Part shown: positions 17,976 to 62,673 of the stretch, in pieces
How positions within the stretch are numbered: position 1 is the first letter of the stretch
Layout of the letters: every line of letters begins with the position of its first letter
Virus record (IMG/VR): IMGVR_UViG_3300045391_001472
Coordinates: 7,736-71,735 of that record
Strand: one strand, 5' to 3'
Length of the DNA stretch: 64,000 bases
From: a virus
Lineage: Duplodnaviria > Caudoviricetes
Translations under genes and position numbers: made by a program
The notes under the pieces: model-generated
Database searches by the model: none
What the model was told of the DNA's origin: nothing
What the model saw: only the letters and a program-made list of their open reading frames with translations

Positions 17976-17990
17976 TTTTCAACAATTTGT

Positions 17991-17998: not shown

Positions 17999-18018
17999 TT
18001 TCAAATATCCAATTTACT

Positions 18019-36524: not shown

Positions 36525-36746
36525 ATGAGTACTTGTGTTGAAAAATCCATAAGGATAGAAATAACAAAAAAGATAAAAGGATTGCCGTATAAAAAAGGAG
36601 AAATTCTTAACGTTACCAAATCGTTAATGAGGCAACATAATGGAAAGTTGTATTATAGCAAGGAATATTATGATTATGAAGTGCCAAATGGACGTGGCAT
36701 ATTATTCCATGAAATCCCTATAAAACATTGTAAAGTAATAAAATGA
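36525..36746 (+). CDS. hypothetical protein
   Basis: Start at MSTCVEK; ATGA overlap with the next gene. Confidence 0.45.
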   Translation: MSTCVEKSIRIEITKKIKGLPYKKGEILNVTKSLMRQHNGKLYYSKEYYDYEVPNGRGILFHEIPIKHCKVIK

Positions 36747-39127: not shown

Positions 39128-42100
39128 ATGCCGCAACCAGATTTAAAACAGTTAATGGGGTTCTTAAATTCCGATGATAACAACGAAACCATCGGACAGA
39201 ATCATCACAAGATGGCATTTAATATGCGGTTTAGAGGTATGCCCGGAAATCTGCGTGGTGAATCTGTTCCCGGAACAATAAAAATAACCAACAATGACTT
39301 ACCAGTAGGGGATAACGAATGTATTGGTAGCTTTTACGATGGATTGAAACAAAGAATTATTTGGTTTAATTGGAATAGTAATGACAGGCATGGTATTTAC
39401 CAATATTCATTAGCCACACAAACCATTACCCCTCTTTTTATTTGCTTTACTAATAGTCAAACAGATATTTTAGGATTTGATTTAGACTTCCCTATTGCAT
39501 CAGTAAACGTTCTTTATACAACCGATGCGGATGGAGATATTATTCATTGGGTAGCGAGGAATAATCGTCCCATGAAATTAAACATCAAAGACGCTTTGGC
39601 TAATACTTATGGTAGTAATTGGCTGGAAGAATATTTAACAGTAGCAAGACCGCAAATAACCATACCTCCTGTATGTAGCTATACCAATGATGCAACAGTT
39701 AATATAAATAATTTAAGAAAAAAACTTTTTGAATTTAGAGTACGTCCAATTTATAAAGATTTTACAAAAGGCACATGGTCGTCATGGAGTAAAATACCAT
39801 CTCCCGCAAATCCAGATAGTATTGCAACCGACATTGACCCAACAAAAAATAACCGTATTGATATTATCATACAAACAGGAAATGCGGATTGTACTTCTTT
39901 AGAGATATGTGCAAGAGAAAGTCAAGCCTCAAATGCTCAAAACACAGAGCCAACGACAGCAGATTTTTCAGACCCTTATAGTATAGTTACATTAAAGAAA
40001 ACAGATTTTTCTATTCCAGACAATGCGCTTTATACTTATCAATTTTTTAATGATGGAGCATACCTTCCTATTGATATTGAAGAAAGCGACTTAGAATGGG
40101 ATAGAGTTCCTTATCGTGCTAATACCCAAGAATTACTAAATGGGAATGTTATTATCTATGGTGGTATAACCGAAGGATATGATTTTGGAGAAACATTAAA
40201 TGTAACATCTTCTATAACTACCATTGACAATACATCTAATATAGGATTGACTATATTTTTAGTCTCTCAAACTTATAGGCTTGACTATTATTTTAGTGGA
40301 GGAGTTACAAACGTAGTTTCTGTTACATTAAAATTTACGGCTGATGCAGTACAAGGAATTACTAATGGAACGGTTACTTATGTATTAAGTCCGGGAGATA
40401 ATCTTACCAACGTTATCAACGGTTTGTTTGCTCAATTTCCAATTGCCGGGACTCATGCTAACTTTGTTGCTCAATTAAATGCGCCAAATTCAATTACGGT
40501 TTTTGCCAGAGATCATTTTACATCACAACTCGACCCACTAACGGGTTCGTTTACTATTGATACATCAGGTAGTTCTCCCACAGATATTAGTATAGCAACC
40601 TACCATCCTCGTTTCAGATATACTTTTGTATTAGTTTATATGGATGATTTTGGCGTAAGCGATGGAGCGCATTTACAGGCATCAACAATGAGTTTGTTAA
40701 TGCCAGAGGAAACGACAACAGGAGGGTTAGCATCGCAGATTCCGCAAATAACTTTTAATATTTTTCATCAACCTCCGATATGGGCTACAAGATTTTCATG
40801 GGCAAGAACGATTAATTTGACAGCAGTACGGACTTACCCTATTGTAACATATACCACTCAAAAAGATAATAATAGCGATTATGCTTACATGGAGATAACT
40901 CCTTATCAAACCAATAGCAATAATTATCCAGTTTATGATTTTGTTGTGGGAGACAGAGTAAGAATATTGGGAGAATTTGTGGCTAATAGTGCAGGTACGG
41001 TTAATGCTCTTGATTTTCCTATCGTTGATTTAGTAACAAACCCTATAATAAATGGTTCTACAAAAACAGGAATATTCGTTAAAGTGCCATTTAATACTGC
41101 ATTGAATAATTTTGGAGCAGGCCATAATAATTGGTTAATAGAAATTTATACTCCTGCTCCCAATACTGTTACCGACCAACAGGTTTATTATGAGTTTGGA
41201 GAAACTTACCCTGTTTTAAATGCTGGTACAAGCACAAGGGCGCATGGGGGACAACAGCAAGACCAAATTGCAGGGACTCAACCCGCTATTTATAATTTTA
41301 TAAGAGGAGATTTTTATCAACGTAGTCGAAGATATATTACGGCATCGAACGTATCTAATACAGTAAGTGTAATTGCTTCTTCTGTTTCCGATCTATATCC
41401 ATCAAGAGTTCAAAGTATAGGAAGGCCATTTCAGATAGACCAATTTGCTGTACGAACATATTTTACCACAATGGTAAGATGGAGTTTACAATACGAGCAA
41501 AATTCATCTATTAATCAAACCAACCGTTTTTATCCATTAAATTTTGATGAAATAGACAGAGCAAAGGGGGCAATTCAAAGATTAAAAGTAAGAGATAGGG
41601 TGTTAAGGGTATTTCAAAATAGGGGTGTTGGTTCTTATGGTATTTATGCAAAGTTCATTCAGAACAATTCAGGACAATCACAACTTGTAACTACCGATGA
41701 CATCATTACAAAAAACAATATTAATTATTATGTTGGAGAATATGGAATGGGCGACCAATATTGTAATTTAACAAGCGCATCCATAGCATCAAGAGATTAT
41801 TTTATTGACCCCGTAAGAGGTTATCATATTAGGGTGAGTGATGATGGCATAACCCCATTGAATGAAAAATACAAAGGTCAATTTTATATCAGAGGATTGC
41901 TTATACCATACAATCAAACCATATTAAGAAGCAATGGAAGTTTGTCGAAGATATTAGGGTGTTATGATTACTTAGAGGAACAACCTATGGTTTTTTTGCA
42001 AGGGGGCATTCCGCTAAAAGATGTTTCAGTAAATAATTTAACTGCCATCGAATCTTTTTCAAATGCTCCTATTCGGTATAATTTATCCTTTTCTGGAGAT

Positions 42101-42937
42101 GTAGTAGATGGAGATATAATTTCACTTCACTTAACCAATAATAATGCTACTTCAAAAGATTTTAGTTATACTGTTATTGCATCAGACACTAAATCTTCCA
42201 TGATAGCAGCTATCATTTCTCTTATTAACACAGATGGAACATTTACCGCAACTACGCAAACGGTAGGTGGTAATTTGGGTATTCTAATTACATCTATTGT
42301 AGAGCCGGGATTGGGGATGGATTCGCAGAACACGGCTACAACTATTACTTATCCTACTATCATTTACCCCACGACTATTAATCCAAAGTCATTTTCTTTT
42401 AATGAAACAAGATTGGGTTATTGTAGTTTCTACGAAAACACAGAAGAAGCATTGAATCCAGATTGGATAACCTGTGCAGAAGAAACTATTTACTCATGGA
42501 AGAATGGAGATTTTTATGTTCATAATGACGATGGAGATAACAGAACATTTTACGGTGTACCATTCTATCCAAGCATTACTCTTGTCTTTAATTCTCAAAT
42601 TGCAATTAAAAAAGTATTTAATGCGATTGCTTATCAGGGAAACCAAATTTGGGAAAGCGATACATTGGGGGATATAAATACTTCAATGGTCAGTCCTCAA
42701 ACTAACTTACAACAAATTTCAAAACTGGTAGCAAAAGATTATGAGATACAAGAGAATGTAAGATATGCAGGATTGCTTAGAGATGCTAATAGTCTGCCAA
42801 ATGCAAGATTGGCCTTGTGGGATGGGGCATTTCTTAATGGAAATTGGGTAGAAGTAAAACTTATTTATAAAGGAAGTAAATTTGGGTGGGTGTTTGCTCC
42901 ATACGTTTTGTGGGAGCCATCCCCTCGTAATCTATAA
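39128..42937 (+). CDS. tail stabilisation/nozzle protein (P22 gp10-like)
   Basis: 1269 aa beta-propeller-like; ANTQELLNGNVIIYGG, YFIDPVRG, PSITLVFN; podovirus tail position. Confidence 0.75.
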   Translation: MPQPDLKQLMGFLNSDDNNETIGQNHHKMAFNMRFRGMPGNLRGESVPGTIKITNNDLPVGDNECIGSFYDGLKQRIIWFNWNSNDRHGIYQYSLATQTITPLFICFTNSQTDILGFDLDFPIASVNVLYTTDADGDIIHWVARNNRPMKLNIKDALANTYGSNWLEEYLTVARPQITIPPVCSYTNDATVNINNLRKKLFEFRVRPIYKDFTKGTWSSWSKIPSPANPDSIATDIDPTKNNRIDIIIQTGNADCTSLEICARESQASNAQNTEPTTADFSDPYSIVTLKKTDFSIPDNALYTYQFFNDGAYLPIDIEESDLEWDRVPYRANTQELLNGNVIIYGGITEGYDFGETLNVTSSITTIDNTSNIGLTIFLVSQTYRLDYYFSGGVTNVVSVTLKFTADAVQGITNGTVTYVLSPGDNLTNVINGLFAQFPIAGTHANFVAQLNAPNSITVFARDHFTSQLDPLTGSFTIDTSGSSPTDISIATYHPRFRYTFVLVYMDDFGVSDGAHLQASTMSLLMPEETTTGGLASQIPQITFNIFHQPPIWATRFSWARTINLTAVRTYPIVTYTTQKDNNSDYAYMEITPYQTNSNNYPVYDFVVGDRVRILGEFVANSAGTVNALDFPIVDLVTNPIINGSTKTGIFVKVPFNTALNNFGAGHNNWLIEIYTPAPNTVTDQQVYYEFGETYPVLNAGTSTRAHGGQQQDQIAGTQPAIYNFIRGDFYQRSRRYITASNVSNTVSVIASSVSDLYPSRVQSIGRPFQIDQFAVRTYFTTMVRWSLQYEQNSSINQTNRFYPLNFDEIDRAKGAIQRLKVRDRVLRVFQNRGVGSYGIYAKFIQNNSGQSQLVTTDDIITKNNINYYVGEYGMGDQYCNLTSASIASRDYFIDPVRGYHIRVSDDGITPLNEKYKGQFYIRGLLIPYNQTILRSNGSLSKILGCYDYLEEQPMVFLQGGIPLKDVSVNNLTAIESFSNAPIRYNLSFSGDVVDGDIISLHLTNNNATSKDFSYTVIASDTKSSMIAAIISLINTDGTFTATTQTVGGNLGILITSIVEPGLGMDSQNTATTITYPTIIYPTTINPKSFSFNETRLGYCSFYENTEEALNPDWITCAEETIYSWKNGDFYVHNDDGDNRTFYGVPFYPSITLVFNSQIAIKKVFNAIAYQGNQIWESDTLGDINTSMVSPQTNLQQISKLVAKDYEIQENVRYAGLLRDANSLPNARLALWDGAFLNGNWVEVKLIYKGSKFGWVFAPYVLWEPSPRNL

Positions 42938-47900: not shown

Positions 47901-50900
47901 CTTAATCAAGATAGCGGAGAGCCAGAAAAAACAGAACCTCCAAAAGAGCCTCCAACAGAAGCCCCAATAGAGGAAAAGCCTGAAGGTGGAAAGAAAAAAG
48001 CATTGGCTACAAGGCTTGTAGAATCCAAAAACATTCCAGAAGAAGCCCGTAAAGGGATTGAAGAAAAGGGGCTAAAATACGAGCCACAGAGCCGCGAAGA
48101 AGCAGCAACCATAGCCAAGACAATACTTGATGAAGCAGGCTTAGATGAAGCCATATTGCAGGCACAGGCAGGTAAATTTGGGGGAGATGTAAATACACTT
48201 GTCCAAACGGAAGCCCTAAACCGATTAGCTGAATTGTCGGACAAAGAACCCGAAGGGGCAACCAAATTTGAGTATGATAAAAAGTTTGCCGAAATAGCCA
48301 CAAACCTTGATGAATGGTTAAGAACACAAGCCGGACGGGGAATATCCGCTTTGAATTACTTCTATAAAAAATCTCCTTTAGGTATTGTAATGATGGAAAA
48401 TGCAAAAAGGGGAGAAGACTTCAAACAATGGTCAAAGCCAAAAGATAAATCATGGAAAGAGTTTTATGAGGAATTAAAAAAAGAACCTGAATTTGAACAG
48501 ATATTCAAAGAAGAAGTAAAAGCAGAATTAAAAAAAGAAAGAGCCGAAGCAAGGAAAACAAGAACGAAAAAAGTAGATGAGTTTTTTGATAAAGCCAAAG
48601 ATCAGTTTAAGGATAAAGGAGCAATGTATTCCACCATCATTCCTCCAAAAGTTATTACCGCAACATTGGAGGGGATGAAACGGGCCTATCATGCAGGGGA
48701 AGCGGTAGTTAAAATAGTACAAGATGCTATTGATTATGTTTCTGAAAAATTAGGACATAGTGATTGGGATAAAGAAAAGTTCAGAAAGGAATGGGAAGAA
48801 AAATTAAAAGATAAATTCACGCAATCTCCACTTGAAAAATATAAAGAAAGATTAAGGGGACAAATTGATGCACTTAACGAACAAATCAATAAGAAGAAAC
48901 GAAACATAAAACCAGAAACAAAAACTGAATTAGATAAAGAAGCCGAAGATTTAACCAAGCAAAGAGATGAACTTAAAAAACAACTTGATGAAATTGTACC
49001 TATAAAAGAAACAGAGGAATATAGAAAGAAGTTCATTGAACGATACAGAAAGAAACTAAGAGGACTTTCGGAAAAAGATAAAGATGAGGTTATCAGGCGT
49101 TCTTTCAAAGAACTAATTGAAAACGGAGCATTGGAATTTGATGATTTTAAAAAGATAATTGGACAAGTAACGGGAAGGGGAGAATTAACACCGGAGCAAG
49201 TAGCCAAAATGAAGGATTTGGTCAAGATGTTGAATGGCGCAGAAGAAGCGGGTAAGAAAGTTCAGGAGGAAAGAACAAAAGAATCATTGATTAATTTTCA
49301 CGCAGCGCAATTAAAAGCAGGAAAAGCACATCGGGAATTGAACGAACTGTTCAATAATAAACCCGATATAGTAAAGCGATTAACTTCTATCATGCAGTTA
49401 AATACATTGGGTATTCCGTCTTTAATCAACAACCCAATTTATAATGTATTCAATCAAATGTTCGTAAGACTTCCTGTTGGATTGACAAATGATATAATTG
49501 ATAGAACATTGGCTGCAATAGCTAAACTTAGAGGCAAGCCTTATGAAAGAGAATGGAATGTATTAGAAACACAAAAAGAATTTTGGAGAGGATTAGGATT
49601 AGGTGCAAAAGAATCAGCAGAACAATTATTGACTGGATTAAATAGACAAGACTATATCCAAAAAGAGGTTTATGGCCAGCAAATCAGACCTTTCCGAGCA
49701 ATGAGAGATTTGATTAAAAATATACAGGGTAAAAAACCATTAAGCTCTGCTCAAAAATGGGATAAAGCATTGCAGGCAACTGTTGGTATTCCGGCAGAAG
49801 CTATTGCAAGAGTTTTGAATTTGGGAGATAAACCCCAAAGATTTGCAGCAGAAAGAGCGCAGGCATCTACGTTTGCAAAAGAATTAGGATTAAAAGATGT
49901 AATGGATAAAGCAATCTTCATGGAATTTCCAAGAGAAGAGGCATACAGAGCCTATAAAGCAAAAGGATTAAGTGATGTTGAAGCAGGAAAGAAAGCCGAT
50001 TATATAAAAGATGTTATCATTAAAGAAGGCCAGCGTTCAACTTTCCAACAAGATAATTTATTAAATCAGGTACTCACAAGAGCCTTTGGAGTATTTGGGG
50101 GAAAAGAAAGTGGGACAGCGAATTTATTAAAATCATTAACTGTTTCTCCATACATAAAAATTCCATCCAATGCTTTTTGGTCATTTTATAATTTAGTAAA
50201 TCCTGAAGTAGCATTACTTCAATCAATGATACATGGAGCAAGAGCGTGGAAATTAAAAGGGCAGGAAGGCAATGCTTCAAAATTAGCATTTAGAGAAGCA
50301 AGATATTGGATGGGTCATGCGATTACGGGTATAGCATTAAGGGCGGTAGTTTCTCAACTGGTGAACAATGGAATATTTACTCCAAGTCAAGAAGATGAAA
50401 CAAAAAAAGAAAGAGAAGGTAGAGCATTTTTTGAGCCACAAGGAACAGTTAATCTAACCAAATTAGGAGCATGGTTAAGAGGTGAAAATCCAAAAGATAC
50501 AAAAGGAGGAGTAACGATTTCAAGTAGATGGTTTGGGGTTTTAGGAATGACAGGAAATTCTATCGCTAAGAAGTACGAAGATATGACGCCCGAACAAAGA
50601 GAAAAACAACAAGAGTTTTGGAATATAGCATTAGGTGGAATGGAAGTAGATGGATTAAGCGAATTACAGAATGGAGTATTTAGCAATACATCTGCAATAA
50701 TAAACGCATTGGGAAGTGGTAGTTATGGAGCGCAGCAATATGGATTGAATGTGATGAATATGGTAATGAATATAGGACACCCTGCCGCATTAGCACAAAT
50801 ATCAAGGGCGCAACTTCCGTATTATACTACAAGCAAAGCAGATAATTTTAAAAAGCAATTAGAAAATTCAATACTTGTTCGTTCATCGGCTATAAGAAGT

Positions 50901-51416
50901 TTACTGAATAAATATCCTGAACCAAAACTAAGCATTTGGGGAGAACCGATGTTGAAGCCGGGCAATACCATTGAAAGACTTTTTGGAATAAACCATGTGA
51001 ATAAAGACAATTTTGCAAAACCCATTTATGAAGATGTAAAAGAAACGGGAGATATTGGATTTTTTCCTCCACCTGTTCCACCAACATTAGGAAAGAAAAA
51101 ATTAAATACAGAACAATCAAGAAGATTAATTGAATTGGTAGGACAAGCAAGAAAGAACTTAGTTGCTCCCTATATCAATGACATGGCAGAAATAGAAGGC
51201 TTTGGATTAAAGTACAGCGAACTAAAAGATAAAGATTTAAGAAAAAAAGTATTATCCTATCTATACGATTTAGGAAAAGAAGAAGGAGTTAAAAACTTCA
51301 TCAATGATTACCCTGAATTTAAAAAAGAAGGATTGGATATAGCCGATGAGATAAACAAAGCAAGGATGGAAGTATTTCAAGAAATCAATAAAGTAAAGAT
51401 TCTTAAACACCAATAA
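44913..51416 (+). CDS. giant ejection / polyvalent virion protein with ART-like insert
   Basis: 2167 aa; twin GYSDxEI N-terminal repeats; central YLRN...GYDGIVT...SEIVALDP domain; long helical C-terminal half. Confidence 0.7.
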   Translation: MPDGDKIPFDYLGAKKAGYSDSEIQGFLKQNYNFDFDITNARTSGYSDKEIADYITAYEPPSKKKEVGGLSSFMQGIGSEIGGQVGNGKAPLENVITQKTFKKNERPFDQTKEEAVTSATNKLNDIMYSEGEDWKDPLRASINGLKKSTTPKDAATHLGVNTLIENAIMPTGFDAKQTLNNSIWGKLDNNNLTSKALREKAQQYDIATAPLKESFDNKDLNNLNDYSKDVYSDLLGNAAIKKYAQDNPQFQKELDATGISLNDPDLFNRLPSGKRGAILNQELQDKDWRTYIEKENPKLAPIFEHTAQNLLTKNIDYGINQVANKVSKAVQETGYNNIEPIFNFHNKGHEEMNDLVAKQVLNPQEYQIWNDHIKDNQSQYMDEPSLFEGIASGIKNTASGYAKTFTEPFTTASQAVQDKWEKEASNVSADPKGLMKYTRDLGNVVGLVGTIMAGGNVTGLGNASNTAVAFFGDQLEQGKQKYPDSPIKAWTSAAVNTTLYAALSKDIFPTGKINQAFKSIEPEVSKVVDNLTTGNISKEIARQQLNTLGKKAFDFIGETLKGGAKISAELTTLTGINRGLDKIMGMDDKAFSEYHPDDELAKTLSNTFLTFLPVAGAARAGEMRQRNKVAEESYYQAAANPKYFNRVIDELAVKDPTINAEELKNNLQFLTDTKAELDKRKIDPKNQGRFLLEALKERANPKEENKNAEPTFQKQAQEDKKASQEIKERILNGEDADAIITKADQEKIDEAEEKRVELERLQKDKELDDKDFKAKRSELDGRTPEDKPKIERLEEDKKRSDEDYQREVEKLSPKQPETETQSPPTVSNEVKGNEVGDNKIATKETDIPEEGKPFQFSYLRNKEKAPNMGERFGQHIEPSGKYVVVSDGDFAKGKENFETGNMRFDKPLVIDFGGGYGEESNWKKVLSKRYDDKTGKELSEAIKKDGYDGIVTISEDKNGTKYTSEIVALDPKEIKNEKSENEIQQSTEIKEPSVTELNQDSGEPEKTEPPKEPPTEAPIEEKPEGGKKKALATRLVESKNIPEEARKGIEEKGLKYEPQSREEAATIAKTILDEAGLDEAILQAQAGKFGGDVNTLVQTEALNRLAELSDKEPEGATKFEYDKKFAEIATNLDEWLRTQAGRGISALNYFYKKSPLGIVMMENAKRGEDFKQWSKPKDKSWKEFYEELKKEPEFEQIFKEEVKAELKKERAEARKTRTKKVDEFFDKAKDQFKDKGAMYSTIIPPKVITATLEGMKRAYHAGEAVVKIVQDAIDYVSEKLGHSDWDKEKFRKEWEEKLKDKFTQSPLEKYKERLRGQIDALNEQINKKKRNIKPETKTELDKEAEDLTKQRDELKKQLDEIVPIKETEEYRKKFIERYRKKLRGLSEKDKDEVIRRSFKELIENGALEFDDFKKIIGQVTGRGELTPEQVAKMKDLVKMLNGAEEAGKKVQEERTKESLINFHAAQLKAGKAHRELNELFNNKPDIVKRLTSIMQLNTLGIPSLINNPIYNVFNQMFVRLPVGLTNDIIDRTLAAIAKLRGKPYEREWNVLETQKEFWRGLGLGAKESAEQLLTGLNRQDYIQKEVYGQQIRPFRAMRDLIKNIQGKKPLSSAQKWDKALQATVGIPAEAIARVLNLGDKPQRFAAERAQASTFAKELGLKDVMDKAIFMEFPREEAYRAYKAKGLSDVEAGKKADYIKDVIIKEGQRSTFQQDNLLNQVLTRAFGVFGGKESGTANLLKSLTVSPYIKIPSNAFWSFYNLVNPEVALLQSMIHGARAWKLKGQEGNASKLAFREARYWMGHAITGIALRAVVSQLVNNGIFTPSQEDETKKEREGRAFFEPQGTVNLTKLGAWLRGENPKDTKGGVTISSRWFGVLGMTGNSIAKKYEDMTPEQREKQQEFWNIALGGMEVDGLSELQNGVFSNTSAIINALGSGSYGAQQYGLNVMNMVMNIGHPAALAQISRAQLPYYTTSKADNFKKQLENSILVRSSAIRSLLNKYPEPKLSIWGEPMLKPGNTIERLFGINHVNKDNFAKPIYEDVKETGDIGFFPPPVPPTLGKKKLNTEQSRRLIELVGQARKNLVAPYINDMAEIEGFGLKYSELKDKDLRKKVLSYLYDLGKEEGVKNFINDYPEFKKEGLDIADEINKARMEVFQEINKVKILKHQ

Positions 51417-51662: not shown

Positions 51663-52181
51663 ATGGCACTTTCACCTGCGTTCACAATTTCGCAGTCTGC
51701 GTTAAGTCCATCAAATATTACTGCTACTGATACCAGTACGGGAAGTGATGGAGCGATAACATCCAGACGTATTTACTTTCAAACTTCACAAGGAACTTAT
51801 TTAGTAGAAAGTGGAACTTCCACAGATTATGAAGTTTGGAGCTATTCGGATTCTTCAGAAACTTTCAATGTTCTAACAACCGATCAAGCCCTCTCTATTA
51901 CGGTTCAATGGTTAGATGTTTCCAATAATGTACTTTATAGTTTAACACAAGTATTTTGCCTTTCAGAATTTAACCAACAATTTTTCTATTACTTAATCCA
52001 GCAACAAGCATTAACCCCTAATATAATTCAGGATTCAAATTATTTTTCAAACATAGCAAACTATTGGATGAATATAACAGGGGCAATACAGGCAATAGAG
52101 ATTGGAGCAGACGTAAGCGCATCCCAAAACTGTTTAAATAGGGCAACATATATGATGGATAATCAAGCCAACTTTTTTTAA
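51663..52181 (+). CDS. putative structural protein
   Basis: Ig-like N-terminus (ITATDTSTG); own promoter-like leader. Confidence 0.55.
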   Translation: MALSPAFTISQSALSPSNITATDTSTGSDGAITSRRIYFQTSQGTYLVESGTSTDYEVWSYSDSSETFNVLTTDQALSITVQWLDVSNNVLYSLTQVFCLSEFNQQFFYYLIQQQALTPNIIQDSNYFSNIANYWMNITGAIQAIEIGADVSASQNCLNRATYMMDNQANFF

Positions 52182-52735
52182 TGCCAACCATCCTCTCCAT
52201 ATCTGATATTATTGAACTCGGAAGGGTTTCAACTTACCTTTCTGCAAACTATACAAGTAAGCAAGCATTATTTGGAGGAAGTGTTATTAAGCCAACACCC
52301 CCTGTTCAAATTGCTTTTGTTACCGATGCTTTAGATTGGGGAAATTCGGGAGGGGCGCAAACATCAGCTTCCCTTCGTTCAACAGCAAATTATCTTTATT
52401 GGCTTTGCGGTAAATTTCAATTACAAGCACAAAATATTATTAGCGGAAGTGGTGGTGGAAGTGTAGTACCAACTCCAAGCGGTAGTTCATCTCCAAATCC
52501 ATTAGACTTTATTGTAGCAGATGATACATTCATTGCAACAGGAGAAGATACAGTTACCATTACTCAATTCATAGGGTTTAATGTCGAATTTGATAGGAAT
52601 GGGCAACCTCAATACACAACTAATCCATCAGATGGTTCAACATATTTTTCATGGAATAAAGTAACAGGTGAATTTGCATTATTGAATGGCGCAGCACAAG
52701 AAAGCGAAAGATTTAGAATAGTACCAACAAGATAA
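52181..52735 (+). CDS. putative fibre adaptor/structural protein
   Basis: TAATG coupling; G/S linker; FSWNKVTGEF; precedes the fibre. Confidence 0.5.
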   Translation: MPTILSISDIIELGRVSTYLSANYTSKQALFGGSVIKPTPPVQIAFVTDALDWGNSGGAQTSASLRSTANYLYWLCGKFQLQAQNIISGSGGGSVVPTPSGSSSPNPLDFIVADDTFIATGEDTVTITQFIGFNVEFDRNGQPQYTTNPSDGSTYFSWNKVTGEFALLNGAAQESERFRIVPTR

Positions 52736-52741
52736 AAATTT

Positions 52742-55177
52742 ATGAAAAAAATATTTCTGCTTATAACGATTCTCATTTTTTCATTGAGAGGAATTTGCCA
52801 GTACCCCATTCAGCAAAACATTGGAAGTGGTTCTACATTAGTTCAAGTTCCTCCCAATGGAGCAATGAAAGCATCTTTAATTAATAGAAGTTTTGTAGAT
52901 ACGATTGCCGCAAACCTGACAAACATAAAATACTATGCAGGAGCAATGATATTTACAACAGGCGTAGGACTTCCAGTAGATGTTTTTACAAATGTTTTAT
53001 GGATTAGAGATTTGACTGCAACCAAATGGTTAAAAGGGAGTGGGGGAAATATAACCTCTATCAATACTCTAACTGATTCAACTATTATCGTGTGTTACTC
53101 AAATGGCGTTTGTGATACACTATCATTCTCCAATACAGTAAATAACAATATCAATAACATCTACAATAACTCCATCACTAATATTTTTTTAATTAATGGT
53201 GATTCATGTATTGTAAGACAACTTGGAACTGGGATTAATCTTGATACTACTTGTTTTGGTTTTAAAATTTGCTCATTTGGTTCAACAGCGAATGGTTGTA
53301 AATTATGGGCTTGTTCATGCCCTGATACAGTTAATATAACCCCAACCTGCGATACAATAGATGTTACTTGTGCATCATTGTTTATGGCCGATAATGGGGT
53401 TGACCAAATTGAGCCGGGACATTTTCAATTAGGAGCAAAGCCCCTTCTACATTATACTTATATAGATGGGAATTATAATAAATTTGATATATTAAATAGG
53501 GTTATCCAAGATTATGGATTAGTAATAAGAGAATATCAATCATGGACAAATAATACGGCTATTTTAGGAATGAAACTCGATAATGAAAATGTAAGAATAG
53601 GATTTAATTATACGGGCGACCCAATTAGAACTACTCCAACTTATATTCCCGGCTATGCCACACCATACAAAGGATATTTTCTTTCAAGTAATGGTATTGG
53701 ATATATCAATCAACAACAAGGAAGACTTTTAGTAGATAGCAATACATGGAAAACAGCATTTGTATTTTTTCATGGGAAAGATACCGCCAATGATATTGCA
53801 TTAAGTTTAGGAGGAACACCCGCACCATTCACAGGGAATACCACTACCACCAACATGAGTAGTGCAATAGGATTGAATATTTATACCACAGGTAAAATAC
53901 AATATCCATTTTATATCCCCTCATCCTCATTTGAAAGTGGAGATACAACAGCCAATAAACCCGCCACTCTTGATGCTAATGGTAATGTAGGAAGATTAGA
54001 CCATTGGCCGAGTGGAGGAACAACGGCTACTCCCGCAGGAAATTATGGCGATGTTCAATTAAATAGGAATGGTGCATTTGCTACTCCCGCATCGGATAGT
54101 TTAATTTTTAATTCTGCACGATTAACAATATTAGGGCATCAAACAATTACTTCAGCTAACACAACAGGAACTACTACTTCTGCGTCATTAGTATTAAATG
54201 CAAATAGTCTTTTAGCTGGTACTGGATTTTATGCCGCATCATCTACTTTAACAAGTGGTTCGTTGGTTGATTTAGCTATTACTGGAACAGCAGCATTAAC
54301 TAATCAAAAAGGTATAAATATTTCTCTAAGTGGTGCAAACGGAACTGGCGCACAGACCACTTATGGTTTTTATGTATCTAATGCACATTCTGGAACTTCC
54401 TCTACAAATTATGCAGGTTATTTTAGCGCAGTAAATGGAACAACAAATAATACTGGGTTATATGCAGAAGGAAGTACCTATGGAGTATTTAGTTCTACTG
54501 ATGGTGCTGGCGGTATTGGTGTACTTGGACAAGCAACGAGTAGCGGAACTGGCGTGTATGCCGCCAGCGTATCTGGTACGGCAGCAAGATTAGTATCAAA
54601 TCCTTCTTCTACTAATACAGTAGTTACAGTAGGTACAATAGAAAGATTAACAAGTGGCACAGCAGCTAATGGAATTGGGGGGAGTTTAGATTTTCTTAAT
54701 AAAACAGTTGCTGGGGTTACATTAACATCAACTCAATTAATATCAAAATGGACTGCTGCTGCTTTTTCAACAAGAACTTCGCAGTTTATAATTACAGGAA
54801 CGAATAGAGGTACAAGCGTAAATAAATTCATTGTTGATAGTAGTATGATACAGGCTTCTGCTATTAGGTTCTCAACAGCAAAAGGGGCGGATGTTGGGAG
54901 TGCAAATGATTTGACATTAGGAGCAGATGGAAATGTTTTTCACATTACAAGTAATACAACCATCAACGCAATAGTTGTAGCAAATTGGCAAGCAGGAAGT
55001 GAAATCACTTTAATATTTGATTCCAACCCAACCGTAAAAAATAATACAAGTGGAAGTGCAGGAACAGCAGTAATGTTATTAGCAGGGGGCGTAGATTTTT
55101 CAGCAACAGCAAATGACGTTTTGAAATTAGTGTATGATGGGACAAGTTGGTATGAAGTAAGTCGTTCAGTAAACTAA
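52742..55177 (+). CDS. tail-fibre/spike-like protein with Sec signal peptide
   Basis: MKKIFLLITILIFSLRGIC|Q; 10 clustered Cys; G/T/S/A beta-helix-like body; C-terminal GNVFHIT...YDGTSWYEVSR fibre-tip domain. Confidence 0.75.
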   Translation: MKKIFLLITILIFSLRGICQYPIQQNIGSGSTLVQVPPNGAMKASLINRSFVDTIAANLTNIKYYAGAMIFTTGVGLPVDVFTNVLWIRDLTATKWLKGSGGNITSINTLTDSTIIVCYSNGVCDTLSFSNTVNNNINNIYNNSITNIFLINGDSCIVRQLGTGINLDTTCFGFKICSFGSTANGCKLWACSCPDTVNITPTCDTIDVTCASLFMADNGVDQIEPGHFQLGAKPLLHYTYIDGNYNKFDILNRVIQDYGLVIREYQSWTNNTAILGMKLDNENVRIGFNYTGDPIRTTPTYIPGYATPYKGYFLSSNGIGYINQQQGRLLVDSNTWKTAFVFFHGKDTANDIALSLGGTPAPFTGNTTTTNMSSAIGLNIYTTGKIQYPFYIPSSSFESGDTTANKPATLDANGNVGRLDHWPSGGTTATPAGNYGDVQLNRNGAFATPASDSLIFNSARLTILGHQTITSANTTGTTTSASLVLNANSLLAGTGFYAASSTLTSGSLVDLAITGTAALTNQKGINISLSGANGTGAQTTYGFYVSNAHSGTSSTNYAGYFSAVNGTTNNTGLYAEGSTYGVFSSTDGAGGIGVLGQATSSGTGVYAASVSGTAARLVSNPSSTNTVVTVGTIERLTSGTAANGIGGSLDFLNKTVAGVTLTSTQLISKWTAAAFSTRTSQFIITGTNRGTSVNKFIVDSSMIQASAIRFSTAKGADVGSANDLTLGADGNVFHITSNTTINAIVVANWQAGSEITLIFDSNPTVKNNTSGSAGTAVMLLAGGVDFSATANDVLKLVYDGTSWYEVSRSVN

Positions 55178-55221: not shown

Positions 55222-55644
55222 ATGCAAATAGTAAATTTATCAGGAACATGGGATAATAATAAACCCAAAGTATCATGGACAATAGATTTCCCTGCTGGTT
55301 ATTCTTCATGCCATGAATTAGACTGTTTAAGGTTTTTAAATGGTACGTTAATAGATACTCTTGCACCCGGCTTTGTTGACCCAGTTGATTGCAATGCTCT
55401 TGGATTTAATGTATCGAAAGCAGCATGGAGTTTTACAGATGATTTTTCAACATGGCCTTCAGGGGAACAGGCAGTACCACTTCCACAACCGGGAGATACT
55501 TTAGAATATGCCATGACTGGTGATTTATCGGATGGAACATTAATTGCAAGCAATCCTTATCGGATTCAATTTGTAATTCCAACGGCAGCAGCACCAACAG
55601 CAAATAATACTCCTGTTTCAAAAGCACACGGTAAAAAAAAATGA
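55222..55644 (+). CDS. FN3/Ig-like small protein
   Basis: VSWTIDFP...SFTDD...GDTLEYAM beta pattern. Confidence 0.45.
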   Translation: MQIVNLSGTWDNNKPKVSWTIDFPAGYSSCHELDCLRFLNGTLIDTLAPGFVDPVDCNALGFNVSKAAWSFTDDFSTWPSGEQAVPLPQPGDTLEYAMTGDLSDGTLIASNPYRIQFVIPTAAAPTANNTPVSKAHGKKK

Positions 55645-55683: not shown

Positions 55684-55965
55684 ATGAATCCCATCCAATT
55701 AACATTAACTATCATTGGAATAATTGGGGGATTGATTTCGTTGATAAATTCATTAGCGAAACAACATAAAAGAGCAGTTCAGGTTTCGGCTATTTTAATG
55801 ATAGTGGTTGGTGTAATAGTGATAGCGGGGCATATAGCAAAGGATAGATTACTTTATCAGATACCCGCAGATCAAATAGGGATGTCATTATTGTCTGCTA
55901 TATTTTTTATCATTTGCGGTGTATTGTTTTTAGTAAATTCTTTTCATATTAATTATAAAAAATAA
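55684..55965 (+). CDS. 3-TM membrane protein
   Basis: Three hydrophobic segments. Confidence 0.65.
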   Translation: MNPIQLTLTIIGIIGGLISLINSLAKQHKRAVQVSAILMIVVGVIVIAGHIAKDRLLYQIPADQIGMSLLSAIFFIICGVLFLVNSFHINYKK

Positions 55966-55976
55966 AAACCACCATT

Positions 55977-56318
55977 ATGAAGTATATCTTAGGAGGATTA
56001 GACCCTGAATTATTCTTAGCCTGTATGTTTTTTGCAGGATTGGGAATTTTATTTGTTCTTTTATTGGGAACAAATCTTCGTCAAACGGATAGCACAGGTA
56101 AAGTGCAAGCCTTTTCTTGGGCTTATTTATGGAGTGATAATTTCAAAAGGATATTAGCTTCACTCATTGCAGTATTGGTAACACTTAGATTTATGACTGA
56201 ATTAATAGGTATTCCATTAAGCCCATTCAATGCTTTTTGCATTGGTACTGCATGGGATGGTATTGCGTTATTGATTAAACAAAAGTCAACAATTCTTGAC
56301 CCAAAACCTAAACCATAA
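55977..56318 (+). CDS. holin-like 3-TM protein
   Basis: Three hydrophobic segments, basic C-terminus, in the lysis region. Confidence 0.55.
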   Translation: MKYILGGLDPELFLACMFFAGLGILFVLLLGTNLRQTDSTGKVQAFSWAYLWSDNFKRILASLIAVLVTLRFMTELIGIPLSPFNAFCIGTAWDGIALLIKQKSTILDPKPKP

Positions 56319-56755
56319 TGCCTCCTGAACAGGAATTTAATAAAGCGATCAAAACATTCTCTGCCACCAAAAGAGGATTTTATATCTTTCTGATACTTGC
56401 AGTATTAGTAGGAATGTTTTTGGTTGGGAAGTATTTTAGGAATACACCTATTGCAGATTGTACCAAATGCGAAGAAGAAAAGAAAGTATTAGTAGATGTA
56501 ATGTTGGATATAAGAAAACAAATGAAACCACTCATAGGCGATACTACTCATTCAGCATTTGATATTCATTTTAATTCAGGAGCAGCTTTATTATTTCCGT
56601 TTGTTGATACTGTACCAAAGAAAAGAGTTGCGGCTAAAGTTCAAGTGGTTCAATTAAAAAACCAACAGCAACAAGTAGCCGTAAAAGTAACACACGAAAT
56701 AGATTCGATAATAAGAAAACTTCAACAACACCAGCAACAAAAACCTAAAAACTAA
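56318..56755 (+). CDS. single-TM protein with periplasmic CxxC/coiled coil
   Basis: TM near the N-terminus; CTKC; DTT, DTV and DSI sequons. Confidence 0.6.
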   Translation: MPPEQEFNKAIKTFSATKRGFYIFLILAVLVGMFLVGKYFRNTPIADCTKCEEEKKVLVDVMLDIRKQMKPLIGDTTHSAFDIHFNSGAALLFPFVDTVPKKRVAAKVQVVQLKNQQQQVAVKVTHEIDSIIRKLQQHQQQKPKN

Positions 56756-56760
56756 AACCA

Positions 56761-56952
56761 ATGGGACAACAACAATATGTAGTACAGTACAATGATGTTA
56801 CTGATTTATACTTGGTGGTCTATGACCCCGATTATAATAATTGTAAATGGGGAAATGCTGAATCAGCTTTGACGTGGACAACATTGGAGGGGGCGCAAGC
56901 AATGGCGGCAAGTATAGGACACGGTACTGTGGGAACGCCTAAACCTCATTAA
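56761..56952 (+). CDS. small soluble protein
   Basis: 63 aa ending GTVGTPKPH; TAATG-coupled to the 4-TM gene. Confidence 0.55.
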   Translation: MGQQQYVVQYNDVTDLYLVVYDPDYNNCKWGNAESALTWTTLEGAQAMAASIGHGTVGTPKPH

Positions 56953-57308
56953 TGAAAAGTAAGCTAAAATATTTTATTATTTATTTCCCTGTAATATTGG
57001 TTGCACTTCAGGTATTTGGCAATCTTCTTTTTTTTATAAGTCCAGATACATATAATTCAAAAGGATTTTATATTGATACATTTTTGGGAACGAATGTATT
57101 TTTTTCAGTTTTTTTGTTAGTATTTACTTTTACCTTTAAATTTTGTGGGATTAGTAAAGCGGCGGCTATCGCTGAATGTTCATTTGCTTTATTTTATTTG
57201 ATTTTTCAAAGAGATGATATTTATAATATTTTGTTTCAAGTTATTGTGGGAACGTTGGCAATATTATTGACATTCTATTTTATTAGTAAAAAAATAATAT
57301 ACCAATGA
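56952..57308 (+). CDS. 4-TM membrane protein
   Basis: Four hydrophobic segments. Confidence 0.65.
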   Translation: MKSKLKYFIIYFPVILVALQVFGNLLFFISPDTYNSKGFYIDTFLGTNVFFSVFLLVFTFTFKFCGISKAAAIAECSFALFYLIFQRDDIYNILFQVIVGTLAILLTFYFISKKIIYQ

Positions 57309-57577
57309 CAACATCAAAAAATGCAGCAGACCCTCAAAATGACAGAGAATTGTTTTTTAAATTAGAAGGCAAATTAGAAAAATTAATATTTTCTATTGAC
57401 CACTTAGCTGATACATTTAAAGAATGGAAAACTACTGAATTTGCAAAAATGGAAACAACAGTAGAAGATTTATTAAAATGGAAAAATCAGGAAGTAGGAA
57501 AGTGGAAAGCATTAACCATTGGAATAGGAATTTTAACTTTAGTATCATTGTATCTTGCTATTAAAAATGCAGCTTAA
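57305..57577 (+). CDS. coiled-coil plus C-terminal TM protein (holin-like)
   Basis: Coiled coil followed by WKALTIGIGILTLVSLYLAI. Confidence 0.55.
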   Translation: MTTSKNAADPQNDRELFFKLEGKLEKLIFSIDHLADTFKEWKTTEFAKMETTVEDLLKWKNQEVGKWKALTIGIGILTLVSLYLAIKNAA

Positions 57578-57806
57578 TAATGCTCTATGGATATTAGTAA
57601 TTGGGATGATATTTGAAATACTGGTTTTAGTATTCGTTGTTGTGTTTGTAATAACGCAAAGAAGCTGGATGATAAAGAGTTTTAGTAATTGCATGACAAA
57701 AATGAAAGAGGTTGAGAGGGAAATGGAAACAATAAAAAAAGTAAATATCAATATAGGAGAAGTAAAAGAGATTTTAACTGAAGTTGAAAAAATAATTAAA
57801 AAATAA
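57567..57806 (+). CDS. N-terminal TM plus coiled-coil protein
   Basis: Long hydrophobic N-terminus, charged helix; start at MQLNN. Confidence 0.5.
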   Translation: MQLNNALWILVIGMIFEILVLVFVVVFVITQRSWMIKSFSNCMTKMKEVEREMETIKKVNINIGEVKEILTEVEKIIKK

Positions 57807-57810
57807 AACT

Positions 57811-58077
57811 ATGCTACTAAACATTTTTCACACAGGGGGGGTAACATTAGCTCTAACTATTTTTTGGTTAGGACTTACTTCATGGTTTTTATATCAGGCA
57901 AGCAAAGCCCATAATAGTGGATGGTATCAGATCAATCCAACCACACACGAAAAAACAGAAGGGAAAGATAAGATACCATTTACTCAAATACCTCAATTTT
58001 GGTTTGCTGTTGCAGTAACAGTAATGTATATAATTGTTATGGTTTTTGTTGTTGCACCTGACTATAAAGGAGTATAA
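57811..58077 (+). CDS. 2-TM membrane protein
   Basis: Two hydrophobic segments. Confidence 0.6.
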   Translation: MLLNIFHTGGVTLALTIFWLGLTSWFLYQASKAHNSGWYQINPTTHEKTEGKDKIPFTQIPQFWFAVAVTVMYIIVMVFVVAPDYKGV

Positions 58078-58451
58078 TGCTTATTTTACAAGCCGCCTAT
58101 ATTGTCTTTGTAATTTTACTTGCAAAAGTAAATAGCAATATTATTAAGAATAATAGGAAAGTGTGGCACTTCGGAAATGCTTTACTTCATTTAACGATTG
58201 CTTGCTTTACTTCTTTTATTTGGTGGTGGGGAATTGGACTTGCTATATTATGCAACACAAGAGTATTTTTCGATTCATTCTTAAACTATTTTAGATTTGG
58301 CAGGATAAATTATGTTAGTTCTTCCCCTGCAAGTTTTATTGATAGAATGGAATTAAGAGTATTTGGCAATGAGTTTTATTTACCCAAAATGATGTATCTA
58401 TTAACTTCACTTAGTCTAAATTGTTTTTATTATATTCTGATTTATAAATGA
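58077..58451 (+). CDS. multi-TM membrane protein
   Basis: Hydrophobic; WHFGN and FFDSFLNYFR motifs. Confidence 0.6.
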   Translation: MLILQAAYIVFVILLAKVNSNIIKNNRKVWHFGNALLHLTIACFTSFIWWWGIGLAILCNTRVFFDSFLNYFRFGRINYVSSSPASFIDRMELRVFGNEFYLPKMMYLLTSLSLNCFYYILIYK

Positions 58452-58801
58452 AACTAACAAAGCATAATGTAATAGTAGGATTGATAATTTTAGTTATTGT
58501 CATTGGTGGAGTTATTTTATTCTCGTTATTAAAATCCAATAAGCAAGTAAAAGATATTTACTTTGATAAATACATGGCATTAAAAGACTCAATGATTAGT
58601 CATGCTCAACAAGACGCAAATAATTATAGAGATTTATATTTACAATCAAAGAAGGATGATTCTTTAACAATGGCAAATCTTATTCAATCACAAAAAATAT
58701 TCAGATTAAATATAAATGAAAGCCTCAAAAACATACCCATTAATCTTGCTCGTATTGCTAACAATGATGACAGTATCAGGGCTGCGTTCTCAAGGAATTG
58801 A
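58448..58801 (+). CDS. i-spanin (Rz)-like protein
   Basis: N-terminal TM plus coiled coil; overlaps the next gene; DSM, DSL and DSI sequons. Confidence 0.55.
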   Translation: MKLTKHNVIVGLIILVIVIGGVILFSLLKSNKQVKDIYFDKYMALKDSMISHAQQDANNYRDLYLQSKKDDSLTMANLIQSQKIFRLNINESLKNIPINLARIANNDDSIRAAFSRN

Positions 58802-59144
58802 TACTACGGGTAAATTGTGGATTAATAGACAAGATGCTTTAAGAAAATTAGCACAAGCTGATTCATTAAAAGTTTACAAAGTATGGTTAATGCAATGCTC
58901 TAACGATGTTGATACACTTTATAAAATTGCCAATCTCAAACAATCCCAAATAAACAACTTATTAAATGCTGATAAATCAAATCAAACAGCTATTGAATTA
59001 TTGAAAAACCAAAAACAAGATTATGAAAACAAAATCAAATCCGATGAAAAACTTTTATTAAAAGAAAGACGTAAAAAGAAATGGGCTTTATTTGGAGGAA
59101 CGGCAGCAATGGGCATACTTACTTTTCTTTACTTAACCAAATAG
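58716..59144 (+). CDS. spanin partner-like exported coiled-coil protein with C-terminal TM
   Basis: Signal-like N-terminus, coiled coil, C-terminal WALFGGTAAMGILTFLYL; DTT, DSL and DTL sequons. Confidence 0.5.
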   Translation: MKASKTYPLILLVLLTMMTVSGLRSQGIDTTGKLWINRQDALRKLAQADSLKVYKVWLMQCSNDVDTLYKIANLKQSQINNLLNADKSNQTAIELLKNQKQDYENKIKSDEKLLLKERRKKKWALFGGTAAMGILTFLYLTK

Positions 59145-59147
59145 CTT

Positions 59148-59657
59148 ATGTGGGGTTTTGCATGGAATATATTCAACAAAAAAGAAGATAATAAAATGAA
59201 AGATGCCATCTCAATACCAAGAGTTAAACAACTTCATCCAAAAGTAATTGATGACTTCAAAAACTTCATTACGGATGCCGAACAAGGATTAGGAATTGTA
59301 ATAAGAGTTACACAAGGATTGAGAACATTTGAAGAGCAGCAGGCTTTATACGATATGGGTAGAACAAAGCCCGGTAAGATCGTTACCAAAGCAAAGCCCG
59401 GACAATCTTATCATCAATACGGTTTAGCGATTGATACAGTAGAGATAATTAATAATGGTAAAGATGTTGATTGGAATTACGATATGGCTAAATTAGTGCC
59501 TTATGCCCATAAATACGGTATCACATGGGGCGGCTCATTTCAAAACTTCAAAGACTACCCACACTTCGAGAAAACGATGGGTTATAATTGGAGAGATTTA
59601 TTAGCTAAATATAATGCAAAGGATTTTATTACAGGAACACAATATGTCAACATATAA
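59148..59657 (+). CDS. endolysin, M15 family L-Ala-D-Glu peptidase (CwlK-like)
   Basis: QGLRTFEEQQALY, SYHQYGLAID, WGGSF...DYPHFE. Confidence 0.9.
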   Translation: MWGFAWNIFNKKEDNKMKDAISIPRVKQLHPKVIDDFKNFITDAEQGLGIVIRVTQGLRTFEEQQALYDMGRTKPGKIVTKAKPGQSYHQYGLAIDTVEIINNGKDVDWNYDMAKLVPYAHKYGITWGGSFQNFKDYPHFEKTMGYNWRDLLAKYNAKDFITGTQYVNI

Positions 59658-60144: not shown

Positions 60145-60426
60145 TTAAGGTTTATAAATAAATCTTCTTTTCTCAATCATATTCAATCCACATAGTGTAA
60201 ATGTTTTTTCTTGTCTGGATGCTTCCAGTTTATAAACGTTCAAAGTGCTATCACATAAATAGCTTTTATCTAAGGTATCGGTTCTTATAAATGAGGTATC
60301 AATTAAATTATATTTATCTGATAGCATTATGCAGAGTTCACAATGTTTGGGAATATCTTTTTGAGTCCAATGATTTTTAGAACAAGAAAAAATAATCATG
60401 GATAGTATTAGTAGGGGAGTTTTCAT
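60145..60426 (-). CDS. early lipoprotein
   Basis: MKTPLLILSMIIFSC lipobox; CELC; DTL and DST sequons. Confidence 0.7.
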   Translation of the reverse strand: MKTPLLILSMIIFSCSKNHWTQKDIPKHCELCIMLSDKYNLIDTSFIRTDTLDKSYLCDSTLNVYKLEASRQEKTFTLCGLNMIEKRRFIYKP

Positions 60427-61935: not shown

Positions 61936-62673
61936 TTATTTTAATAGTTTTTGTTGAGTTATTTCCATTAAAGATTTTTGCAATTTCAATGAAGCCTTTA
62001 AAAGTTTGTCGGTGTATATTCTTAAATAAAAGGTTCTATTATAGTCTCCAATATCAATAGTTCCATCTTCTCTTATAAATAAACCGCCTTTTAAATTACC
62101 GGTTTTTGCATCTTTAACAGTCATATCAGATACGCCAATGTTTAAAAAATTTCCTCCCATCATTTCAAATATTTTATTGCCTTCTTCATCTGTAAGATTT
62201 ACAATATCTCCCGTATTTATTTTGCCTATAAAATTCTCTTCCAAATTTGTCCAAATTTTAGCAAAGTCAATGGTATCTTTTATTCCAAGATTAGGGAGTG
62301 AAATTTCTAATTTGCCACCGTCTTTTATTTCAATATCCTTTTCTTTTACAATAATCTCTTTTTTGCCTGTAACGGCCTTAGCAACTTCTTTTTTAACCTT
62401 TTTATCTGTTGGCGAATCTGCAAATGATATTGACGGCTCTTTAGCGGTTAATTTAGCCGAAACTACGGCATAATTCCAATTACTATCAATGTCTGCGAAG
62501 TCCATTATTTCAGCCATTGTATCGCCTGCAATAAGAGAATCCAATTTATCTAAATCAATTTCTCCGCTTTCAATATAATCTCCATTAATAATGCAATTAA
62601 AATAAAAACGTTTATCGCATCTTTCATGGCTCATCATTAAAGGCTCAATCCATAAATATATATTCGTGTTCAT
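61936..62673 (-). CDS. hypothetical protein
   Basis: 245-aa ORF in early operon. Confidence 0.55.
   Translation of the reverse strand: MNTNIYLWIEPLMMSHERCDKRFYFNCIINGDYIESGEIDLDKLDSLIAGDTMAEIMDFADIDSNWNYAVVSAKLTAKEPSISFADSPTDKKVKKEVAKAVTGKKEIIVKEKDIEIKDGGKLEISLPNLGIKDTIDFAKIWTNLEENFIGKINTGDIVNLTDEEGNKIFEMMGGNFLNIGVSDMTVKDAKTGNLKGGLFIREDGTIDIGDYNRTFYLRIYTDKLLKASLKLQKSLMEITQQKLLK

Follow-up and report, generated by a model that had tools for sequence, protein, structure and literature searches.

Can the receptor-binding gear of a tailed phage mature outside the cytoplasm of its host? The question is raised by a predicted tail-fibre-like protein of 811 amino acids (aa), encoded by the open reading frame (ORF) 52742..55177 (+) of a 64,000-bp stretch of phage DNA (hereafter the window; bases 7736-71735 of the 71,735-bp virus record IMGVR_UViG_3300045391_001472, which carries inverted terminal repeats). 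Tailed phages are taken to build all virion parts in the cytoplasm, and a family-wide secretion signal on fibre-like proteins would depart from this picture. An original prediction, made from the sequence of the window, held that the protein leaves the cytoplasm. This part of the claim is strongly supported by the conservation of a leader followed by Gln, by the pairing of Cys residues, by an excess of host O-glycosylation motifs across the family and by the enrichment of the same motif in other predicted envelope proteins of the phage. For the fate of the protein, the prediction allowed either joining of virions at lysis or a surface or secreted blocking role.

The leader and its conservation

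The N-terminus of the protein holds the following feature, assigned from the sequence rule together with family conservation:

52742..52798 (+): predicted Sec/signal peptidase I (SPI) signal peptide, aa 1-19, with a predicted cut between C19 and Q20

The ORF starts 6 nt past the upstream stop codon, and its next in-frame Met is at aa 42. The N-terminus reads MKKIFLLITILIFSLRGIC followed by Q20 and is composed of the n-region MKK, an uninterrupted h-region of 12 residues (mean Kyte-Doolittle hydropathy 3.1) and the residues RGIC, with G at position -3 and C at -1; the canonical leader and Gln20 described in the original prediction can hence be read directly in the ORF. All the sequence characters of a Bacteroidota SPI substrate are present (basic n-region, h-region, small residues at -3 and -1, Gln at +1), the Gln at +1 being typical of such substrates and known as the Q-rule (PMC10653852). 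Leader calls throughout this work were made by a simple heuristic rule and by conservation rather than by a trained signal-peptide predictor.

The first five homologues found all start with a leader, a small residue and Gln. A family profile (A1) comprising the N-terminal 440 residues of the first homologues was scored against 1.84 billion representative proteins and returned 956 clusters at E<=1e-3 (647 at E<=1e-10); the statistics on leader, Gln and position -1 are drawn from the best 150 of the 956 clusters. The leader is kept in 128 of these 150 representatives, and Gln follows the h-region in 126 of the 128. In these 126 Gln-bearing relatives the leader is 18-20 residues long, and position -1 is occupied by S, A or G in 121. 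Of the 22 leaderless representatives, some are gene calls cut short, and the others have a different N-terminus and match the profile at positions ~200-430 only. Since the cleavage-site pattern with its +1 Gln is strictly conserved, the leader is taken to be translated and cut. Initiation at a downstream start codon, which had been named as an observation that would overturn the proposal, was rejected on account of the family-wide conservation of the leader. Type IX secretion was likewise considered and rejected, as Pfam detects no C-terminal sorting domain (Por_Secre_tail/type B CTD, that is, C-terminal domain) either in the window protein or among 46 members of its family, and the C-termini vary.

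Paired cysteines behind the leader

The second line of evidence lies in a compact region of the mature protein, delimited by the Cys positions, their covariation and the AF2 model:

53093..53371 (+): Cys-rich beta-hairpin region, aa 118-210, with five putative disulfides and four O-glycosylation motifs

The protein has eleven Cys, at aa 19 and at aa 118, 124, 156, 171, 177, 186, 191, 193, 203 and 210. The ten mature residues span nt 53093-53371 and none lies C-terminal of aa 210, in agreement with the earlier observation of ten Cys confined to about 53090-53375; the eleventh, at aa 19, sits inside the leader. In a 40-sequence alignment (A3), these Cys are present or absent in pairs, with a phi coefficient of 1.00 for 156-171, 177-193, 186-210 and 191-203 and of 0.81 for 118-124, although the sequences are related and represent fewer independent events than their number. 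Such pairwise gain and loss points to structural disulfides rather than metal sites, and the ten Cys would form five of them. The AF2 model places successive beta-hairpins in this region. Across the family, the number of mature Cys is even in 88 members and odd in 38, and the commonest spacing is C-x5-C.

O-glycosylation motifs

The motif (sequon) D-(S/T)-(A/I/L/V/M/T) occurs nine times in the window protein, at aa 53, 112, 125, 168, 195, 204, 347, 401 and 452. Six of the nine fall within aa 20-230, where shuffling (5000 rounds, none with as many as six) gives an expectation of 0.94, while the remaining 581 aa are not enriched (three against 2.5 expected); the nine motifs listed in the original prediction, six of them near the N-terminus, are reproduced exactly. 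Two sequons directly follow a Cys (C-D-T-L and C-D-T-I), an arrangement seen at 205 of the 688 N-terminal Cys of the family (C-D-T-I/L/V).

The other 108 ORFs of the phage hold 51 sequons against 56 expected. When the ORFs that hold at least two motifs are compared, the excess is greatest in three predicted envelope proteins, namely 56318-56755 (three against 0.23 expected), 58716-59144 (three against 0.44) and the lipoprotein 60145-60426 (two against 0.38); the leaderless proteins 4887-5594, 55222-55644 and 61936-62673 reach an approximately threefold excess. Richness in Ser and Thr was rejected as the cause of the motif count: the remaining ORFs lie near expectation, as does a Ser/Thr-rich coiled-coil fibre of 1024 aa in the same phage (six sequons against 6.5 expected). 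A motif frequency equal to that of cytoplasmic Ser/Thr-rich proteins, which had been proposed as grounds for abandoning the idea, is therefore not what is seen.

The excess extends to the family. Over 126 members, the first 210 mature residues hold 647 motifs against 120 expected (an observed/expected ratio, O/E, of 5.4), and the ratio falls to 3.1 over the next 220 residues and to 1.25 in the distal parts. Control patterns give O/E values of 0.98 (X-S/T-D), 0.77 (S/T-D-X), 0.64 (E-S/T-X) and 1.25 (N-S/T-X). In Bacteroidota, the motif is glycosylated in non-cytoplasmic proteins only, usually almost fully, and motifs introduced artificially are glycosylated too (reviewed in PMC12871550). Glycosylation is hence the default expectation if the protein is exported, and the leader suggests that the sequon-bearing part would indeed be non-cytoplasmic.

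Modular architecture of the protein

Outside the leader and the Cys-rich region, four further parts of the protein can be distinguished:

52799..53050 (+): mature N-terminal segment and small domain D1, aa 20-103, with a nearly invariant D53-T54-x-A-N (alignments, AF2)
53384..54040 (+): conserved domain D2, aa 215-433 (pLDDT mostly 70-92), which also occurs behind other N-termini in leaderless relatives
54041..54487 (+): Gly/Ser/Thr-rich shaft, aa 434-582, recognised from sequence, common to the homologues P0002, P0003 and P0005 and without a Pfam or PHROG match
54488..55174 (+): distal fibre module, aa 583-811, recognised by its identity to fibre-like proteins

In D1, the residues D53, T54, A57 and N58 are invariant in alignment A1, and their conservation in A2 and A3 is 90% or higher. 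The AF2 model, computed from a 40-sequence alignment, is all-beta overall (pLDDT 73.9); the first 26 mature residues are of low confidence and are followed by a small alpha/beta unit. Within D2, mature residues 250-372 align to ORF18 of Geobacillus virus E2 (7chu_A; Z 10.2, rmsd 2.0 A over 88 residues). A set of leaderless relatives that share D2 only (P0107, P0109, P0110, P0114, P0116 and P0120) carries a different Cys-rich N-terminus (for example, MENCNCSENCPETTDLCKG...).

The distal module is related to fibre-like proteins in two ways. P0006, a fibre-like protein without a leader from a crAss-like phage, matches residues 583-808 with an internal module (its aa 183-409; 44% identity), and the annotated tail fiber protein of Alteromonas phage XX1924 ends in a stretch 37.6% identical to residues 697-811. 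The description of the C-terminus as a fibre tip is partly right. Elsewhere in the family, the C-termini consist of Peptidase_S74, beta-helix, GDSL and pectate-lyase domains (46 members scanned by Pfam).

Searches with the complete protein added little: no Pfam or PHROG family matches it, a PDB sequence search gave no match, Foldseek of the model against the PDB returned only noise, the ESM Atlas held no match of at least 0.9, and the rows from a fold search of BFVD were weak, with low TM-scores, and included some tail fibres. The 811-aa protein is best explained as a modular receptor-binding fibre with a conserved N-terminal part and exchangeable distal modules, its role on the particle being argued from analogues.

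The phage and the context of the family

The window contains the genes of a tailed phage, among them the large terminase (TerL; 21344-23413) and the portal (17959-20496). TerL is ~25% identical to the TerLs of Cellulophaga, Maribacter and Flavobacterium phages, those of Cellulophaga podophages being nearest, and BLASTP matches the portal, a ring-like protein and the muzzle protein to counterparts in Cellulophaga podophage phi18:3 (gp113-115 for the ring-like and muzzle proteins). Because these four proteins resemble those of Cellulophaga-type phages, it is reasonable, though not proven, to regard the host as a Flavobacteriia-type member of the Bacteroidota and the phage as short-tailed and crAss-related. 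The muzzle is identified as follows:

39128..42937 (+): muzzle protein of a crAss-type tail, no leader (PF25729 crAss_MUZ_C at E 9e-9, above the curated cut-off; BLASTP matches to phi18:3 gp114 and gp115)

The label of podovirus given in the original prediction is reasonable in view of this protein and of the affinity of TerL; the Pfam models of the crAss capsid and ring matched none of the proteins of the window phage.

All of the eight genomic contexts examined for the family are phage contigs. Several follow one order, with a muzzle gene, a giant protein, genes of ~55 aa, ~172 aa and ~180-275 aa, the appendage genes, membrane genes and an endolysin. Nearly every appendage gene after the 172/180-aa pair encodes a leader with Gln or a lipoprotein leader, and none of the upstream structural genes does. 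In the window, the pair is represented by:

51663..52735 (+): two leaderless conserved genes, of 172 aa and 184 aa, ahead of the appendage genes, with homologues at the same position in five related loci (L002, L003, L004, L008 and L011), all without a leader

Neither of the two proteins has a family (Pfam, PHROGs) or a relative of solved structure (PDB sequence search), apart from a sub-threshold Flagellin_D3 match of the 172-aa protein; from their position, they are perhaps candidate cytoplasmic docking partners of the fibre.

Beyond these contexts, no relative of the N-terminal domain was found in 50,697 GenBank phage records (tblastn with three N-terminal queries), nor in low-sensitivity pattern scans of IMG/VR and GTDB genomes. 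Some related loci carry four or five consecutive leader-bearing appendage-like genes (L011 4642-15008, L009 7038-14474 and L008 10001-16305), which include beta-helix, SprB-like, BNR-like and PKD-containing proteins and amount to as much as ~3450 aa in one 73-kb genome.

Analogues in cultured phages and other systems

Leader-bearing proteins at a comparable position are encoded by two cultured Cellulophaga phages. In phi18:3 (NC_021794.1), gp085, gp086 and gp087 have a leader, a small residue and Gln and are sited just before the lysis genes; siphovirus phi10:1 (KC821618.1) has five such genes (gp091-gp095), four of which (gp091-gp094) are annotated as structural. These seven proteins (phi18:3 gp085-087 and phi10:1 gp091-094) are annotated as structural or tail proteins “based on experimental MS/MS proteomics analysis” (MS/MS, tandem mass spectrometry). 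They resemble the window fibre in their appendage size (317-785 aa), in their Sec leader with a small residue and Gln, in their place between tail genes and lysis or membrane genes and in their Flavobacteriia hosts. They differ in that they are annotated in particles, whereas the window protein is predicted from its gene, and gp085-087 have few Cys and one sequon each. The N-domain of gp086 (phi18:3; L013 4545-6902) is common to phi10:1, phi19:1, phi19:3 and phi13:2 while the remainder differs, and it appears that a cassette of leader plus N-domain moves between unrelated phages of one host.

Classical modular fibres (crAss001 gp22-gp26 and that of XX1924) share with the window protein the design of a conserved N-terminal part with exchangeable distal modules and a shared C-terminal module, and its family uses the same kinds of ends (Peptidase_S74, beta-helix, esterase). 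Unlike it, they have no leader, no Cys-hairpin region and no sequon excess, and are assembled in the cytoplasm.

An architecture closer to that of the window protein is offered by the mosaic adhesive trimer (MAT) fibres of Bdellovibrio bacteriovorus, in which a signal peptide precedes a conserved beta-rich N-domain and mosaic fibre bodies and tips, some with S74 chaperone-protease ends (Caulton et al., 2024; PMC10769870). The comparison covers architecture: leader, conserved N-domain and mosaic fibre come in the same order. MAT fibres show that phage-type fibres can fold after Sec export; they are encoded by the bacterium and shown on its own surface, and the account, as far as consulted, gives neither a Q-rule nor a Bacteroidota O-glycosylation setting. 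Proteins with Q-rule leaders are also encoded by Porphyromonas gingivalis prophages, where their function is unknown and they have been read as an adaptation to the secretion system of the host (Matrishin et al., 2023; PMC10367356). These are likewise phage-encoded, but are thought to modify the host envelope, and the paper makes no mention of tail fibres and analyses neither Cys nor sequons. Literature searches retrieved no description of Sec secretion signals on tailed-phage fibres and no comment on the leaders of phi18:3 and phi10:1.

A proposed route and its strength

The route that would accommodate these observations has six steps. SecYEG would export the fibre preprotein (step 1); host signal peptidase I would cut between C19 and Q20, and a host glutaminyl cyclase would turn Q20 into pyroglutamate (step 2). 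In the periplasm, five disulfides would form in the hairpin region (step 3), the general O-glycosylation system of the host would add glycans at all or part of the D-(S/T)-x sites, mainly at the six of aa 53-206 (step 4), and the fibre would oligomerise (step 5). After holin and endolysin have opened the inner membrane and the wall, the fibre would meet finished particles (step 6), docking via its conserved mature N-terminus, perhaps onto the two leaderless proteins (172 aa and 184 aa) whose genes immediately precede its own.

Confidence declines along this chain. Export, cleavage before Gln20 (with pyroglutamate formation) and disulfide formation are together regarded as highly probable from the conservation of leader and Cys pairs. 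Glycosylation of the fibre by the host is thought probable, with less assurance. The whole chain, through to joining of the virion at lysis, is advanced tentatively, by analogy; it is favoured because the analogues are annotated as virion proteins and because the design is that of a receptor-binding protein. With the same reserve, it is suggested that the host-recognition appendages of cultured Cellulophaga phages and of a large group of uncultured Bacteroidota phages may be Sec-exported, trimmed, pyroglutamate-capped, disulfide-bonded and host-glycosylated before they are attached to particles built in the cytoplasm.

Several points weigh against this proposal. For tailed phages, we know of no way in which a protein of the periplasm is added to the particle. 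A large share of the sequon excess of the family consists of conserved motifs (DTTAAN, C-D-T-I) rather than independent events and could be structural. The MS/MS annotations of the phi18:3 and phi10:1 proteins are silent on removal of the leader, and BLASTP of gp085-087 against all ORFs of the window genome, the related loci and 167 family proteins gave nothing at E<=1e-3; lacking BLAST similarity to the window fibre, the Cellulophaga proteins serve as analogues only. With its leader, the stretch formed by the first 118 aa of gp086 shows 82-83% identity between siphoviruses and podoviruses, which would be odd for a tail-specific docking domain. As the appendages of crAss001 (gp21-26) and of Maribacter phage Panino have no leader, the trait is lineage-specific. 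Finally, the phage encodes another fibre candidate, the leaderless 1024-aa coiled-coil protein at 30726-33800, and so the exported protein need not be the receptor binder of the particle.

This last point leads to the possibility that the protein is exported but never joins the particle. It would then act in the periplasm or at the cell surface, where it would bind or destroy receptors (for release of progeny or to block superinfection), aid release or serve as a MAT-like adhesin. Every piece of evidence for export applies equally here. The gene adjoins the lysis and membrane cassette, the family ends include enzymes of the receptor-destroying type (beta-helix/pectate lyase and GDSL esterase), and the phage has the separate leaderless fibre candidate. 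Bacterial MAT fibres (PMC10769870) combine a leader, a conserved N-domain and a mosaic trimeric fibre in a surface device, and the sharing of the gp086 N-terminus by siphoviruses and podoviruses fits a partner that is no part of the tail. Against such a role stand the seven analogous leader-bearing proteins of two cultured phages that are annotated in virions by MS/MS; the finding of no type IX C-terminal domain or lipid anchor, as a means of reaching the cell surface, in the window protein and the 46 family members; and the pairing of a conserved N-terminus with exchangeable distal modules, which is the usual design of virion-anchored receptor-binding proteins. Moreover, some relatives devote five consecutive genes (~3450 aa) to such leader-bearing proteins, and no leaderless appendage gene lies inside that block of the 73-kb contig. 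An off-particle role is considered somewhat less likely than joining of the virion.

It is also conceivable that the pool bound to particles is assembled in the cytoplasm and that the leader is not used for it, either because it remains uncleaved as a membrane tether that times or places assembly or because it is inefficient and gives two pools. This would agree with general knowledge, since in all tailed phages examined to date the tail is, to our knowledge, a product of cytoplasmic assembly. The same distal modules fold without a leader in the crAss-like phage and the Alteromonas phage, and the virion annotations do not state whether the particle-bound form has its leader. Only cutting by signal peptidase I, however, makes sense of the Gln at +1 and of the small residues present almost universally at -3 and -1; the strict covariation of Cys pairs indicates structural disulfides, which are disfavoured in the cytoplasm, and the sequon excess is limited to the N-terminal part of the protein and to the other envelope proteins of the phage. 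A cytoplasmic pool is accordingly rated as quite improbable. Lastly, a lipoprotein, cut by signal peptidase II before Cys19 and anchored in the membrane by lipid, is suggested by the Cys that ends the hydrophobic stretch (..LRGIC-Q), but is very improbable, given that Ile at -1 and Gly at -2 of that Cys fit a lipobox poorly in our reading and that the position is S, A or G in 121 of 126 relatives, with Cys only in the window protein (the closest relative reads ..LRGLS-QG).

Significance of a probable periplasmic maturation

Release of an exported, trimmed fibre to finished particles remains the preferred reading, and its consequences can be stated. The leader, the +1 Gln rule of the host phylum, the disulfide pairs and the sugar motif of the host together suggest that the periplasm can be the place where receptor-binding gear matures and acquires glycans of the host type. 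If this is true, a two-compartment route of assembly, with host-made glycans on the fibre, would bear on the timing of assembly relative to lysis, on the stability of fibres outside the cell, on the effect of host glycosylation mutants on infectivity and on the annotation and expression of fibres for host-range work. The kind of protein is already known (a tail-fibre-like receptor-binding protein); the novelty would lie in its routing through Sec, and would be categorical only if two-compartment assembly were shown. If the protein instead acts off the particle, the family would represent a large unrecognised class of phage-encoded, secreted fibre-like effectors. Cultured phi18:3 and phi10:1 make the question directly testable, as their leader-bearing proteins have, according to the annotation, already been detected in particles.

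Neighbouring genes and other observations

Downstream of the fibre gene, the following features were noted:

55222..55644 (+): gene of 140 aa directly 3' of the fibre gene, no leader, no Pfam or PHROG match
55684..59657 (+): run of small membrane or exported proteins that ends in the endolysin, a likely lysis cassette (scan for transmembrane segments and leaders, Peptidase_M15_4/VanY matches)
59148-59657 (+): M15/VanY endolysin (Peptidase_M15_4 and VanY matches)

The order of fibre, membrane genes and endolysin is repeated in four related loci (L002, L004, L008 and L011). Genes of 135-140 aa occupy the spot after the fibre in L002, L004 and L005 (placed by position and not by homology to the 140-aa gene of the window); those of L004 and L005 are alike and leaderless, and that of L002 has a leader.

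Just before the endolysin lies an overlapping pair, 58448-58801 and 58716-59144. The first product has an N-terminal membrane anchor; the second starts with a Sec leader (..SGLRS-QG, with the cut ahead of Gln), lacks a lipobox Cys and carries the three sequons (0.44 expected) already mentioned. The two resemble a spanin pair in which the outer partner is no lipoprotein. The leftward early genes include 60145-60426 (-), whose 93-aa product has a leader of the lipoprotein type (..MIIFSC), five Cys and two sequons and may be a candidate for superinfection exclusion.

Upstream, the giant protein of 2167 aa (44913-51416) has no Cys and no sequons, against 4.35 of the latter expected, and the giants of five related loci also lack Cys. 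A full-length GroEL (15564-17168; PHROG 5725, E 6e-138) is encoded just upstream of the portal gene, and the annotations of the related phages phi18:3 and Panino include a GroES-like gene. Among the tail genes, right after the 1024-aa Ser/Thr-rich coiled-coil fibre, a 902-aa fusion (33812-36520) combines MptE/Maf-like, FkbM and other methyltransferase domains with a 2OG-Fe(II) oxygenase and is followed by a GT8 glycosyltransferase (36743-37483); together, these two could form a phage-encoded cytoplasmic system for glycosylation or other modification of a virion protein.

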